DNA of 64,000 nucleotides. Origin: Escherichia phage L14. Shown one piece after another: positions 3,184 through 63,884 of the stretch (within the stretch, counting starts at the first letter, position 1; the number at the start of each line of letters is the position of its first letter). A model generated the notes under the pieces. The model was not told the origin of the DNA. It was given only the letters and a program-made list of their open reading frames with translations, and made no database searches. The position numbers were made by a program, and so were the translations under genes. The stretch lies in sequence record OQ992558.1; one strand, written 5' to 3'.

Positions 3184-3764
3184 TATTCACCACAGAATTC
3201 GTTGATATTTTCCCAGTTTAACTTATTCAAGTTTTTCTTAGGAACATTAAACACTTCAATACCTGCATTTCGCAGAATATCATCCCAGCCAGGTTTATTT
3301 TTATCGTATGTTTCACAATAAACCAGCTTTTTAATTCCAGATTGAGCTATTGCTTTTGCACAATCTGGGCAAGGAGAAAGTGTTACATACATAGTAGCAC
3401 CTTCAATTGAAGAACCGTTTCGTGCAGCAAACAAAATAGCATTTAGTTCAGCATGAATTTCATTTTTAGACGACCATTCAGAGTGCGCGCTACGATGTTC
3501 TTTCGCCAATACAAAACGATCAGTTGAACCAAACGATACACATTCAGGCTTATGACCTTGAATGATAGTATGTTTAGGCTTATTCAGCAACCAACCTTGC
3601 TCAGCAGCATAATCACAGCAGTTCACACCACCTGCAGGTGAACCATTATATCCAGTAGAAATAATACGTCCATTCTTTTCAATTACTGCTCCTACTTTCC
3701 AGGAGCAACATTTTGATTCTTGTGATACTAAATATGCAATTTGAAGTACTGTACTCGCTTTCAT
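3183..3764 (-). CDS. cd: dCMP deaminase (193 aa)
   Basis: Zinc-dependent deaminase motifs HAE...PCxxC (HAELNAI...SPCPDCAKA) visible; length equals T4 Cd. Confidence 0.9.
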   Translation of the reverse strand: MKASTVLQIAYLVSQESKCCSWKVGAVIEKNGRIISTGYNGSPAGGVNCCDYAAEQGWLLNKPKHTIIQGHKPECVSFGSTDRFVLAKEHRSAHSEWSSKNEIHAELNAILFAARNGSSIEGATMYVTLSPCPDCAKAIAQSGIKKLVYCETYDKNKPGWDDILRNAGIEVFNVPKKNLNKLNWENINEFCGE

Positions 3765-4099
3765 TTCATAATCACCAGATAAGCAGATTTAGCAGTTTCA
3801 ACACGATAAATTTCGTGACGAAGTTTAGTTATACTTTTAATAACAGAACTAATTATATTCTGCCCATCTTTAAAGCGGTTTTTCTTATCAATAAAAATTG
3901 CGCCAACCATCTTTTTGTGAAGCTCAACCGGATACTTCGTCACAATAATAGCATCATACACAGAAGGATGAATACTATTCACCAGAGTATCATTCATTAA
4001 AGTTATTCTAATGAACTTTGCTGTTTCAGAGTCAAGCGCTCTATGATCGCCAGTATCATTTTCAAGACAATTATCAATTATATCAGTTAAATTCATCAT
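3761..4099 (-). CDS. hypothetical protein (112 aa)
   Basis: ORF in cd-pseT interval (cd.x-like). Confidence 0.45.
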   Translation of the reverse strand: MMNLTDIIDNCLENDTGDHRALDSETAKFIRITLMNDTLVNSIHPSVYDAIIVTKYPVELHKKMVGAIFIDKKNRFKDGQNIISSVIKSITKLRHEIYRVETAKSAYLVIMK

Positions 4100-13558: not shown

Positions 13559-13870
13559 TTACACCGCCATTTTTCCTTTCAAGACGCCGTGGGACTGATA
13601 ATCTTTGAGAACGAAATCTTTAGGCCTGAGTTTAAGAATGTATTCCAATTGTTCTTTAGTAGAAAGATAGCGGAATTTATAAGGCAATCCGCCTATTACC
13701 AGTTCACAAAGCTCTTTAGGTTCACGACGCAAAATTTCTTTACATTGTTCTACGTGATTCATATAGATATGAGTATTACCACCGGAAAATATCAAATCTC
13801 CCGGAATAAGATTACACATCTTAGCTACAATATGAACTAACGTAGCATATGATGCAATATTAAATGGAAG
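13559..13870 (-). CDS. td: thymidylate synthase, exon 2 (103 aa + stop)
   Basis: Begins CTT CCA TTT (LPFNIASY...) directly after intron 3' terminal G; in frame with exon 1. Confidence 0.9.
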   Translation of the reverse strand, partial: LPFNIASYATLVHIVAKMCNLIPGDLIFSGGNTHIYMNHVEQCKEILRREPKELCELVIGGLPYKFRYLSTKEQLEYILKLRPKDFVLKDYQSHGVLKGKMAV

Positions 13871-14190
13871 CATTATGTTCAGATAAGGTCGTTAATCTTA
13901 CCCCGGAATTATATCCAGCTGCATGTCACCATGCAGATCAGACTATATCTTCAACTTGTTAAAGCAAGTTGTCTATCGTTTCGAGTCACTTGACCCTACT
14001 CCCCAAAGGGATAGTCGTTAGGCATTTATGTAGAACCAATTCCATTTATCAGATTTTACACGGTAAGTAACTAATCCTGATGAAATTATTAAAGGGTAGT
14101 CCTACAATTTAGCACGGGATTGTCTACTAGAGAGGTCCCCCGTTTAGATAGATTACAAGTATAAGTCACCTTATACCTAGGCCTCAATTA
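13871..14190 (-). other. group I self-splicing intron in td, 320 nt, no internal ORF
   Basis: 5' end UAAUUGAGGCCUAGGUAUAAGGUG..., 3' end ...UAACGACCUUAUCUGAACAUAAUG match recalled T4 td intron ends; exon 1 ends in U, intron ends in G. Confidence 0.85.
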
Positions 14191-14739
14191 ACCCAAGAAA
14201 ACATCTACACTGCGTTGATACCATTGTAAATCAAGATAACCATTACGCACATTAAACTGATAGAACATATGACAAGGTGGTAATGCCATATATTTAAGTT
14301 CAGCTGGATTCCACGCAGAAACAATTTGACGCCTATCACTTGGTAGTTTTTTAATACGATCAATAACTTCTATAATTTGGTCTACACCGCCAAAATCGCG
14401 CCACTGTTTTCCATAAATTGGGCCAAGTTCACCACTATGGTATCCTAAATCTTTTGCCTGATTTTCGTAATTTTCATCCCAAACTGTTTTGCCTTGGATT
14501 AACGAATCATGCTGAATTAATCGTAAATCATTGACATTTGTGCTTCCTGATAAAAACCAAAGTAGCTCAGCAATGCAAGCTTTCCAGGCGAGCTTCTTAG
14601 TTGTTACCGCAGGAAAACCTTTAGTTAAATCCCAGCGTAATTTAGTACCGAATAAAGCAATTGTTCCTGTGCCTGTTCGGTCATCGGTTTCATAGCCATT
14701 TTCAAAAATGTCTTTAATTAAATCTTGGTATTGTTTCAT
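14191..14739 (-). CDS. td: thymidylate synthase, exon 1 (183 aa)
   Basis: TS active-site region ...LPPCHMFYQF...; ORF hits stop UAA exactly at intron 5' end. Confidence 0.9.
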
Positions 14740-39816: not shown

Positions 39817-41994
39817 TTAGGCCGCAAGGGCCTTCATAGTTTTAGCGATTTGAGAAACTTCATCATCACTTAAAGAGTTGCGATATCCGATGAAGTCGGA
39901 AACAATACGGAATTTCTTGGTAAACTCAGCAACCATTTTATCACTGTTTTTTGAAGCATTATTTGATAATACATCAAAAAGATTAGTTACTGTCCAGATA
40001 TCATGACCGATGGTATCTTTTCCACCATTAAAATATACACCGCGCAATGAACTAACTATATTAGCGAGTCGTGTATATTCTTCAGAAACTTCATCTGTAC
40101 TGAAGTACTTCATCATAAAATCTAGTTCAGGATACTTGATAATTTTATCAATATATCGTTGAGCTGAACTTGAATAACCTACATACTTATCATAATCTAC
40201 ATCATCAAAAGCATCTACATATAAATCACGCAAAGCTTCAAAAATACATTGGCACTGACCGAGTTCTTTTACCTTTTTCTGTAAAAGCGGACGAATAACA
40301 TAAAATTCATTAATGCCAATAAGATTAGCCATACGAATCAAAATATTCATAGATGGATGACAAAGAGATGTAGTACCATCCATAGAGAAAATATCAGAAC
40401 GATGCATATACGCTACATAACCAGTAATTTCATCTGCTTCTGATGTGAGCGTAAACAGTTCCTCTTTTTCCCATCGCCCATCTTTAATTTCAAACTTAAA
40501 TGCTGTAGCAGCTTTAGGACGAGGAGCTTTACTTTTAACTACCTTTGGAATATAGCTTTTAACTAAAGCTTCAATTTCTGACAAATAATGAATGTTAACT
40601 TCATCACTTTCAAACATCGCCATAATATCAGGAAGTAAATCAATCTGCGATTCTACTTCTGGATTAATAAACAGAAGACGCTCATTGTGATGAATATTCA
40701 AAGTGTTATTAAATTCACTATCATCTAACGCATGTGCTAATCCACGGACAATATTAACACGATTTTTAATATTATCAATAACGATATTAATTTTTGTTGT
40801 ATTAATACCGAACAGACGATAACTTGATGCAACGGCTGAAGTTTCATGACTTTGCTTAATGCGTTTCAGTCGAGGGTCAAGATTTACTTCATACACAACT
40901 CCTGCATTGCATAGTTTACTATCAGGTTCAAACATGCTTTGCATCTTTTTATATGACAGATTTTTAGTCGTAAATTTGACTGAATTACTAATCATATAAT
41001 CTCGAGCAGAATATCCCATCTTCATCAATTCACGGTATGTATGACGAGGAGATGTAGATTCTTTAAATCGTTTTACATCTTCATTGAATGCCTTCTCACT
41101 AAGCTCTTTAACGCGCTCAATAATATTTTTACGAGTACGATCATCTAGTGAAAGAGCTTCGCGTGATGGAGCAATATCAAGTGAACCCATTGGAAACTTA
41201 ATGTAATTCACTTCATTGCGGATGCTTAACCAGTTACGGTCTCTAATAACGCCATCGATAGGATAAACAATACCACCATAGATAGCATACAATCCACCAC
41301 GATCTGGCCAATATCTTTCTGGATTTACGCCGTAATAGTCATCAAAATCCGGAAAATAATCAATTTCGCGGTCAAGACCATTAATGATAGCCAAATCTTT
41401 GAATGGTCGCATGATATAAGAAACTTCATAAGCAAAGTTTCTAAAGTCCTTTTCTTCAACTGGAACTACGATTTCAATACCAGTTTTATCATCTGGACCC
41501 ATTTCTTTTACGAACGTAGGTTTAATTTGCGGACCATCACCATCCATGTAAGCTACATAACCACGAATTTCGCCTTTATGATATGAAGTAATACTAAATG
41601 TATCAGTATAACTAAACGGAGATTTAGAACCTAAACCAAATCCACCAATGAAATCGTTAGATTCAGCCTTAGATGAACTAAAGTATGAATTATACAACCC
41701 AGGAGAATTATCATCACCTTGAATATCAAAATCGCTCATACCCGGACCAAAATCTCGGCAAACAAATCGCGGATCTAATCGTCCTGGAACTTGAATGATA
41801 AATTTTTCATGATTTCCATTGAGAGCATGGGCGTCAATCATGTTGGTAATCAATTCACGGACTACTGCGCGAATCTTGTTTGTATACAAATCAGATGACA
41901 GAATTTTAAATACTTTAGGAGATGCTGTGATGCTAAATGCTTTTGATTTAGAACCATTGCCAAGAATTGTTTCTTTTTCAGTGGTGATAATCAT
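39817..41994 (-). CDS. rIIA: rIIA (725 aa)
   Basis: Matches recalled T4 rIIA length; GHKL-type ATPase-like N-terminus. Confidence 0.92.
39819..39833 (-). promoter_or_regulatory. stem-loop at rIIA/rIIB junction
   Basis: aggcc gcaag ggcct inverted repeat. Confidence 0.4.
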
Positions 41995-60080: not shown

Positions 60081-60443
60081 TTAAAAGAATTTAAACTTTT
60101 TCTTTGACCTTTTATTAAATGCATCTTGTAGTTGCATTGTAATACATTTTTCTACATGAGGAGCTAACTCAGCTTTTCTTTCTTGGTCAAGAACAGCAAA
60201 GTCCATTACGACTTTTCCATCAACCCAATCTAATTTTGTCACATACACAATGTGTGTAGAACCATCTTCTAGTTTAATGATAATCTCCTGGATAACATTT
60301 TCCATGGCAGATTTAATTATCTTAAGAGATTCATTAAAAAGACGTTCTTTTCTTTCTTCTTCCCCCTCCGAAGAGGGGGATTCGTCGATAATTTCTAGAT
60401 CTAAATCTAAATCATCTTTATTCATTAAATTCTTCCATATCAC
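60081..60443 (-). CDS. 40: gp40-like protein (120 aa)
   Basis: Position between uvsX and 41; overlaps uvsX 3' end by 26 nt (or 8 nt from the 7th-codon Met). Confidence 0.5.
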   Translation of the reverse strand: MIWKNLMNKDDLDLDLEIIDESPSSEGEEERKERLFNESLKIIKSAMENVIQEIIIKLEDGSTHIVYVTKLDWVDGKVVMDFAVLDQERKAELAPHVEKCITMQLQDAFNKRSKKKFKFF

Positions 60444-61599
60444 TTAACTGCTCGAGGTCAGTTTCTAAATCAGCTGCTGATTTACTTTTACTTTCTGGAG
60501 ATTTAAATTTTTCAACCTTTGAGTTAATCAATTCATCAACTTCAGCTTCAACAATTTCATTACTATCAATAGCACCTAACTGATAAGCGCGTTTAATAGC
60601 ATCTCGGAATGGTTGATGCTTAAATAAAGGACCCCAGAATGTAGTGCAGTTAGTATCTTTTGCACGCCAAGATTTTTCTTCGCGAATCATCTCACCGGTT
60701 TCTTCATCAAGAAATTCACGAGCATACCAACCATTTTTAGGTTTTACTACAAATCCTAATTCTAGAGCCATATCTAACAATCCAGAATAAGGATCGATAC
60801 CACCGTCAAATTTAACATCAATAAAGAATTTACTTTTTTCTTTAACTGTACGAGATTTTTCTACATTTAGAACAAATTGATACCCCTGAAGATCAGAACC
60901 ATCTTTAATCTGGCGCTTACCGATAATGAATACAGTATCAGCCGAATACATTACGCCTGTACCACCTGTCATCACGGTTTTACTAAACATTTCAATGGTT
61001 TCAATTGTATGGTTAACCGCAACACATGGAATATTTTTAATACTAAAATAAGGAGTAACAATACGGAATAATGACTTCAGTGATTTAGCACGAGTCATAT
61101 CTGCAACAGATTTTTCATTCAAGGCATCTTCCGTTTCTTTCTTAGAAGCCATATTACCAATTGAATCGATGAATACAATAACTTTTTCACCACGCTCAAT
61201 AGCTTCAAGCTGATTCACCATATCAATTTTCAGCTGTTCAACTGACTGGATTGGCGTATGAATTACTCGTTCCGGGTCAACTCCCATGGATCGCAAATAA
61301 GCTGGAGTAATACCAAATTCACTATCATAGAATAGACAAACCGCGTCAGGATATTTGTTCAAATATGCCGCAACCATAGTCAAAGACATATTTGATTTAA
61401 AGTGTTTAGAAGGCCCTGCGAAAATAGTTAAACCAGACTGCATACCGCCATCAATCGCACCAGAAATAGCAATATTCAGCATTGGAATTTTTGTACGGAT
61501 TACATCCTTTTCATTAAAGAATTTAGATGTAGTCAGTTCAGCAGTCATTTTAGAAGTGGAAGCTTTAATCAAACGGGATTTTAAATCTGCAATAGACAT
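60418..61599 (-). CDS. uvsX: UvsX recombinase (RecA-like), 393 aa
   Basis: Walker A GPSKHFKS; matches recalled T4 UvsX. Confidence 0.92.
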   Translation of the reverse strand: MSIADLKSRLIKASTSKMTAELTTSKFFNEKDVIRTKIPMLNIAISGAIDGGMQSGLTIFAGPSKHFKSNMSLTMVAAYLNKYPDAVCLFYDSEFGITPAYLRSMGVDPERVIHTPIQSVEQLKIDMVNQLEAIERGEKVIVFIDSIGNMASKKETEDALNEKSVADMTRAKSLKSLFRIVTPYFSIKNIPCVAVNHTIETIEMFSKTVMTGGTGVMYSADTVFIIGKRQIKDGSDLQGYQFVLNVEKSRTVKEKSKFFIDVKFDGGIDPYSGLLDMALELGFVVKPKNGWYAREFLDEETGEMIREEKSWRAKDTNCTTFWGPLFKHQPFRDAIKRAYQLGAIDSNEIVEAEVDELINSKVEKFKSPESKSKSAADLETDLEQLSDMEEFNE

Positions 61600-61676
61600 T
61601 CATTTTTTCCATAGGCATCATTATATTTTCCTCACTGGTTAAAGATAGAGTAATTATAACACGATAAATTTAGGCA

Positions 61677-62525
61677 TTAATCAACTGCTATTGGATGAAT
61701 AGCATTAAACTTATGAAATGCTTCTGATTTTTCTTTACGTGAAACGCACATGCGAAGAACCTTTAATGGCTCGTCTTCTTCACCCAACGATTTTCGTTTT
61801 TCAATATTCGACGTTTTCCAACGAGCTTGCTCTGGAAACTCTCTATTGATTTGCTCAAGCGCTCTATTATGTTTAGAATTACTACGAATTGAACTACACC
61901 CACCAGGAGCTTGCGCTTTTCCAGATACAACCAGATATTTGAACAAGGCCAAATGCGGATAACCTTGATTAATTAAATTGAGAAATGCATACATATCTTC
62001 GCACAAATCAATTTTTCCATACCCAATTTGTTCTGTCGTAAGTTTTCCGAGGTCATACCATGTATTCGTGAATCCATATGAATTTTCACGATAATTACCC
62101 CAAGATGAAGTAATTTTAAAAATTGGTAGACGAGCATGGCCATGATAATACCCGCAATCCATGGCATCCTCAACATATTGAATCAATTCATAGAACTGTT
62201 CACGAGTCAATTGATTGACTTTATCTACACAACGACGGTCATCTCTTTTTCGCATTGAACTCATACGAATAGTAGTATCATCGTCAATCATCCAGATTCG
62301 TTGACCTGCATACATATCAGTAATTGCTTTACGAGTACCGGCAATTCCGTTTACATCATCAGGAATAGTTATAATTTTAGCTCTAGACCCATAGGCATCA
62401 TAATAAGCTTTTTCTTCATGTTCACGCACTATAATATGCGGTTCATAATCAGTCGGAAACATATCAAGGGCAGAAACTGCCCCTACACGCTGATAACTTG
62501 GAATTACGAATTGAATCATTTCCAC
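61677..62525 (-). CDS. glycosyltransferase with DXD motif (282 aa); candidate HMC-glucosyl transferase
   Basis: IWMIDDDTTIR DXD motif; occupies the uvsX-42 slot where T4 has the 351-aa beta-gt. Confidence 0.6.
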   Translation of the reverse strand: MEMIQFVIPSYQRVGAVSALDMFPTDYEPHIIVREHEEKAYYDAYGSRAKIITIPDDVNGIAGTRKAITDMYAGQRIWMIDDDTTIRMSSMRKRDDRRCVDKVNQLTREQFYELIQYVEDAMDCGYYHGHARLPIFKITSSWGNYRENSYGFTNTWYDLGKLTTEQIGYGKIDLCEDMYAFLNLINQGYPHLALFKYLVVSGKAQAPGGCSSIRSNSKHNRALEQINREFPEQARWKTSNIEKRKSLGEEDEPLKVLRMCVSRKEKSEAFHKFNAIHPIAVD

Positions 62526-63256
62526 TCACCATTATAATCTTTTTTCACAATATGAGTTTCGCCAGTATTCCACCAATGATCAACCAAGTAAAAATGACGA
62601 GAATATACATGAAGACTTCCAACATTCCATATAATAGAACCTGCTTTATATTGACGAGTTGAATCGCCTGCATTCAAATCAGATACTAATTTATCTAATA
62701 CGTATTTTTGCCATGCATAATCATTACGGAATCCGAAGACCACATCATTTGAGCGCATGTTAACAACCGCATTGATTTTCTTGTCACGAATCAGGTATTG
62801 TACTGTATTTGTACACATGAAATCTGACATGCCATCTTTATTGTAGTCAAACTGCATAGATGGACGAGTATAAATCATGATACCACGTCGAGAATCAGGA
62901 TTTTGACCAAGTTCAGCTAAACACATGTCATATTGAGCATAGTTATCTTCTGACCAGATAGCCCAACCATAATTCGAGTTAATTTCACCTTTAGAAGATG
63001 CTACTTGTTGCCAAATCTTCGGTGTTTCACCCGGAATATCTTTAACGAACAAGCTTTTAGATTTATACCATTCAAGTTCACGCTGAATGTATTCATCATT
63101 AAGAGCGCCAAAAATAAACGGTTCATCTGCTACAAATGATGCGCCAATAATTTCAATAGTTTTAACACCAGTTTTATCAACTACGAAATCTTTTTCTTTT
63201 AATGCAAGTCCCAAATGAAGACGGATTTCTTCAACTGTCATAGAGTCACTAATCAT
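62516..63256 (-). CDS. 42: dCMP hydroxymethylase (246 aa)
   Basis: TS-fold enzyme; matches recalled T4 gp42 length and position. Confidence 0.9.
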   Translation of the reverse strand: MISDSMTVEEIRLHLGLALKEKDFVVDKTGVKTIEIIGASFVADEPFIFGALNDEYIQRELEWYKSKSLFVKDIPGETPKIWQQVASSKGEINSNYGWAIWSEDNYAQYDMCLAELGQNPDSRRGIMIYTRPSMQFDYNKDGMSDFMCTNTVQYLIRDKKINAVVNMRSNDVVFGFRNDYAWQKYVLDKLVSDLNAGDSTRQYKAGSIIWNVGSLHVYSRHFYLVDHWWNTGETHIVKKDYNGEWK

Positions 63257-63668: not shown

Positions 63669-63884
63669 TCACTTAGTCAAATTTTTTACGCATGAATTAT
63701 AAGAATTCACTACATACTCCATCGGAGCATTTTTACCAGTACGCCATTGGTAATTATTAGCCCAATTAGCCCAAATTTCGGCGCAGTAGTTTTCAATTTT
63801 TTCTTCGCGTGTAATTACATCAGAATTACGATATGCTTGAGCAGATTCATCTGGACGAATAGCTTCGTCAAAATTCGCCTGCAT
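63669..63884 (-). CDS. hypothetical protein (at least 71 aa)
   Basis: Reading frame stays open upstream of the ATG to the window edge (64000), so the protein may be longer. Confidence 0.4.
   Translation of the reverse strand: MQANFDEAIRPDESAQAYRNSDVITREEKIENYCAEIWANWANNYQWRTGKNAPMEYVVNSYNSCVKNLTK

Follow-up and report, generated by a model that had tools for sequence, protein, structure and literature searches.

Escherichia phage L14 very probably carries the T2/T6-type ba-gt gene between uvsX and gene 42

The open reading frame between uvsX and gene 42 in the analysed window (a stretch of 64,000 nucleotides from Escherichia phage L14, sequence record OQ992558.1) is almost certainly the ba-gt gene of Tequatrovirus, i.e., the ortholog of the T2/T6 gene whose product puts a second glucose on glucosylated hydroxymethylcytosine, yielding gentiobiosyl-hydroxymethylcytosine (gentiobiosyl-hmC). 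The gene, also named g-gt or TAGT and encoding a beta-glucosyl-HMC-alpha-glucosyltransferase, was located at positions 61677-62519 on the minus strand with its TAA stop codon at 61677-61679. Which host defences are able to act on a T-even phage depends on the type of sugar that its hmC carries, and the presence of ba-gt predicts a modification pattern of the T2/T6 type and not of the T4 type for L14, which is of use for annotation and for reasoning on host range in phage therapy. The arrangement is the textbook one of T2 and T6 and contains no new biology: publications already cover the gene as well as its function, fold, synteny and distribution, and the same interpretation has been set out explicitly for T6-like Tequatroviruses (PMC13390438; PMC13216743).

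Over 280 amino acids the protein was 99% identical to the T2 enzyme and 99% and 98% identical to the enzymes in two T6 records, and each of the two to five substitutions separating it from these enzymes was either conservative or also present in other isolates. It matched the PHROG 842 profile annotated as beta-glucosyl-HMC-alpha-glucosyltransferase (E = 7e-89, profile positions 3-269 of 270) and, over the full length of the model, the Pfam family PF20691 (TET-associated glycosyltransferase, TAGT) with 38.2 bits against a gathering cut-off of 27.5 (E = 1.9e-9, profile positions 2-205 of 205, protein residues 5-209), while no NCBIfam model matched the protein. The identity of 98-99% and the two profile matches support the suggestion made in the first-pass annotation that this could be a transferase of the second glucose as in T2 and T6, and no result spoke against it. 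An RB69-type arabinosyltransferase was considered and rejected on the same identity values. The T2 and T6 genes were reportedly cloned and sequenced by Winkler and Rueger in 1993.

Using megablast, ba-gt was found at full length and at least 90% nucleotide identity in 474 deposited phage genomes, mostly from phages of Escherichia and Shigella, with some of Yersinia, Salmonella and Citrobacter and a few of other genera, and many of these genomes annotate it as beta-glucosyl-HMC-alpha-glucosyltransferase. The copies in phages ES12 and ES26 were 100% identical to the one in the window. A word-indexed homologue search yielded only 11 proteins, and an exhaustive profile search was needed to reach the wider TAGT family, which then comprised 2144 representatives (clustered at 50% identity) at E-values of at most 1e-3.

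The motif IWMIDDDTTIR noticed in the first reading of the DNA is present at residues 75-85 (280-residue numbering), and its three aspartates D79-D80-D81 are encoded by GAC GAT GAT at positions 62277-62285 on the minus strand. In 87 family representatives that were 19-63% identical to the query, R11, D80, D175, G186 and G207 were invariant and D79, D81, G206 and R212 were at least 90% conserved; the residues conserved in the Pfam TAGT family (R11, D79-D81, D175, G206-G207, R212) are all found in the L14 protein. Judged by this conservation, the DDD is the DXD motif of the family and not a chance triplet, because it is invariant or nearly so in 87 diverse homologues and is accompanied by family and fold matches. 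In the structure model it directly follows a predicted beta-strand (residues 74-77), as in GT-A enzymes, and D79-D81 would bind the metal and UDP-Glc. The pair E174-D175 within the sequence CEDMY (positions 61995-62000, minus strand), of which D175 is invariant in the 87 representatives, is, by likeness to inverting enzymes of the GT2 type, a plausible candidate for the motif that would supply the catalytic base in an inverting GT-A enzyme.

A sequence search of the PDB returned chance matches only (E > 1), and the fold was therefore assessed on a predicted model, since no solved relative was detectable by sequence. The model was built from an alignment of 10 sequences (mean pLDDT 70, pTM 0.72), with pLDDT values of 85-95 in the N-terminal half and below 50 in the loops 125-151 and 203-211. 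A GT-A nucleotide-diphospho-sugar transferase fold was recognised in it, with marginal Foldseek E-values of about 1e-3. The first-pass annotation had described the protein as a GT-A-type DXD glycosyltransferase and had proposed a comparison at the fold level as a check; the predicted GT-A fold, the conserved DDD and the memberships in Pfam TAGT and PHROG 842 all agree with this description. The contrary reading, that the protein is no nucleotide-sugar transferase and that the DDD arose by chance, could draw on the only moderate confidence of the model and is next to incredible: it is refuted by the Pfam, PHROG and fold matches, by the conservation of the DDD throughout the family and by genetic evidence for the T6 ortholog (PMC11078745; bioRxiv 10.64898/2026.02.25.707755). 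Structural or profile evidence against a sugar transferase had been named beforehand as what would overturn the assignment; the profiles and the predicted fold point the opposite way. The TAGT of T6 has been described as a GT-A protein in a group sister to GT2 (PMC13216743). Compared with GT2-type GT-A proteins such as TarP/TarS and the catalytic domain of BcsA, the L14 protein showed only 7-16% sequence identity; it differs from them in having no membrane or polymerase modules and in its acceptor, which is modified DNA.

The open reading frame recorded at positions 61677-62525 was found on the minus strand, where the listing counts 282 codons from a GTG at 62525. The length of 282 amino acids given for it in the first reading is better replaced by 280. 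An ATG at 62519 lies in frame as the third codon, two codons after the GTG, and overlaps with the TGA stop codon of gene 42 in the sequence ATGA; in AR1 and T2 the coding sequence is annotated from the equivalent ATG, which gives 280 amino acids. The protein most likely has this length, because annotated relatives place the start of the coding sequence at the ATG that overlaps the gene 42 stop. Since the stop and the start overlap, co-transcription and translational coupling of gene 42 and ba-gt are probable. Codons 12-18 of ba-gt contain a 9-bp GC-rich hairpin (TAGGGGCAG TTT CTGCCCTTG, minus strand, 62465-62485); it was flagged by a scan for terminator-like structures, has a weak T tract and is kept in T2 and T6.

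The end of the window is a T4-like (Tequatrovirus) block of replication genes on the minus strand in the order primase 61, dmd, helicase 41, gene 40, uvsX, ba-gt, gene 42, imm and imm.1. Gene 42 (62516-63256, minus strand) encodes a dCMP hydroxymethylase with 98% amino acid identity to T4 gp42 and a match to Pfam Thymidylat_synt, and the downstream neighbour uvsX (60418-61599, minus strand) encodes a recombinase with 91% amino acid identity to T4 UvsX and matches to Pfam T4_UVSX_C and RecA. A truncation of imm.1 (71-residue open reading frame, 63669-63884) was considered and rejected, as the frame continues without a stop as far as the edge of the window and its translation agrees with imm.1 of AR1.

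The order uvsX, ba-gt, gene 42 is the same as in T2, T6 and AR1, whereas T4 carries at this position the homing endonuclease gene segA and the gene for the 351-residue beta-gt. In L14 the spacer between uvsX and ba-gt spans only 77 nt (61600-61676) and contains no segA. The replacement of T4 beta-gt between uvsX and gene 42 that had been claimed for this locus is thus upheld by synteny, although the swap also involves the absence of segA, which the claim had left unmentioned. On the minus strand the spacer reads TGCCTAA (61676-61670), 11 further nucleotides and TATAAT (61658-61653). This site upstream of uvsX resembles a T4 MotA-dependent middle promoter, and we take it to be a candidate for one.

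The statement that the protein does not resemble T4 beta-gt was likewise confirmed: BLASTP gave no similarity between the two (best E = 2.2), and no match to T4 beta-gt was obtained anywhere in the window by tblastn. The two enzymes share a syntenic locus downstream of gene 42 and the formation of a beta-glycosidic bond. T4 beta-gt uses UDP-glucose, as does ba-gt. They differ in the acceptor, which is the hydroxyl group of hmC for T4 beta-gt and the 6-OH of the alpha-glucose for ba-gt, and in fold and length, T4 beta-gt being a GT-B protein of 351 amino acids without detectable sequence similarity to the GT-A protein (PMC13216743 for the fold class).

In the pathway proposed for L14, gp42 would make hm-dCMP, so that hmC enters the DNA during replication, and alpha-gt would put a first alpha-glucose on hmC after replication. 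The ba-gt enzyme would then take a second glucose from UDP-Glc and attach it to the 6-OH of this alpha-glucose, creating the beta-1,6 bond of gentiobiosyl-hmC; as the bond in the product is a beta bond, the enzyme presumably works with inversion. An alpha-gt gene was not found in the window by tblastn, and its expected position lies beyond the window end. Since the gene would be located outside the window, the alpha-gt step was deduced from relatives, and we infer that L14 carries alpha-gt between genes 47 and 55, some 12 kb past the end of the window. ES12, with its identical ba-gt, encodes an alpha-gt that is 91% identical to that of T4.

In T6, deletion of ba-gt (g-gt) replaces gentiobiosyl-hmC by alpha-glucosyl-hmC and alters the sensitivity to Brig1 and BapA (PMC11078745; bioRxiv 10.64898/2026.02.25.707755). 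Transfer of glucose from UDP-Glc to alpha-glucosyl-hmC, as supported by these deletions of the T6 ortholog, is most likely also what the L14 allele would carry out. T6-like Tequatroviruses encode an alpha-GT together with a TAGT that is syntenic with the beta-GT of T4, and they have no beta-GT; in those from Durham that carry TAGT, alpha-gentiobiosyl-hmC was detected by LC-MS (PMC13390438). In most relatives of the T-even phages TAGT is paired with an alpha-GT or a beta-GT (PMC13216743). What sets the Tequatrovirus members apart from the Pfam TAGT family at large is that no TET/JBP dioxygenase accompanies them. Their hmC is made by gp42 at the nucleotide level, and their acceptor is the sugar on the base and not the hydroxymethyl group.

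A TAGT-family transferase with another donor or acceptor, acting on hmC directly, on beta-glucosyl-hmC or with another sugar and thus not producing gentiobiosyl-hmC, has to be weighed here. The size and diversity of the family (the 2144 representatives mentioned above) and the existence of phages that pair TAGT with a beta-GT or carry it without a recognisable alpha- or beta-GT (PMC13216743) would allow for such an activity. Only two to five residues separate the protein from the T2 and T6 enzymes, however, and ES12 has alpha-gt, with no beta-gt among the 40 kb inspected on the two sides of its ba-gt, so that we regard a different donor or acceptor as highly improbable and retain the transfer of a second glucose as the function of the L14 protein.

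With regard to the allele, the L14 gene shares with those of T2 and T6 the identity of 98-99%, the DDD, the overlap of its start with the gene 42 stop and the location next to uvsX on the other side. It differs by few substitutions, at positions 11, 30, 40, 55, 106 and 251, from which no functional difference can be inferred. The allele is T2-like in having Y40 and D55 (N40 and G55 in T6) and R106, T6-like at positions 11 and 251, and carries I30 instead of V, which among the compared sequences is shared only with ES12 and ES26. Given the 98-99% identity it is very unlikely that this allele would make a modification other than gentiobiosyl-hmC.

How much of the hmC is diglucosylated in L14 cannot be read from the sequence, because the nearly identical T2 and T6 enzymes (about 98%, differing at few residues) accompany gentiobiosyl-hmC contents of 5% in T2 DNA and 72% in T6 DNA, a 14-fold difference. 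The enzyme might therefore contribute little, leaving the DNA essentially alpha-monoglucosylated in a T2-like rather than a T6-like pattern, and R106, Y40 and D55, which L14 has in common with T2, are in line with this. We consider such a minor contribution a tangible possibility, if a somewhat doubtful one: it is a matter of degree and not of the identity of the enzyme, the residues or expression differences behind the T2/T6 ratio are not established in the literature examined, and the Durham T6-like Tequatroviruses with ba-gt do show the gentiobiosyl base (PMC13390438). It is very improbable that this combination of T2 and T6 residues with I30 leads to an uncommon ratio between mono- and diglucosylated hmC; if this were true, a comparison of natural alleles could reveal what determines the low content in T2 and the high content in T6.

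Both T6 records carry apparent lesions in ba-gt. In MH550421 codon 10 was changed from CAG to the amber codon TAG (locus L002, positions 3950-3952, minus strand), and the coding sequence has therefore been annotated from Met20. In AP018814 three nucleotides are missing from a GATGATGAT run, which reduces DDD to DD (locus L007, about positions 3732-3740); at the DDD, the less slippery GACGATGAT is found in the window and in T2, AR1 and ES12. Laboratory stocks of T6 may thus be losing or varying ba-gt function, which is suspected because T6 is the classical phage with high gentiobiosyl content and yet both records appear damaged.

As for the host defences, gentiobiosyl-hmC was resistant in vitro to the glycosylase Brig1, which excises alpha-glucosyl-hmC (PMC11078745), and it is also resistant to the glucosyl hydrolase BapA (bioRxiv 10.64898/2026.02.25.707755). 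Type IV enzymes of the GmrSD type still target it (PMC13216743).

Over the last 24 kb of the window (positions 40000 to 64000), overall identity to the best-matching deposited genomes was only about 96%, and the imm/imm.1 segment was 100% identical to ES12 and ES26 and the td region 100% identical to phage U115. Going by these matches, L14 belongs to a very common phage type and is itself a new mosaic isolate, as the 24-kb stretch agrees with known genomes at only about 96%, and the mosaicism is typical of Tequatrovirus. The thymidylate synthase gene td is split by a group I intron (13919-14200, minus strand; Rfam RF00028, 70 bits), and its exon open reading frames (14188-14739 and 13559-13873) lie only about 300 nt apart, which leaves no room for an open reading frame of the homing endonuclease I-TevI of the T4 td intron. 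The same intron layout is found in phage U115 and many others.
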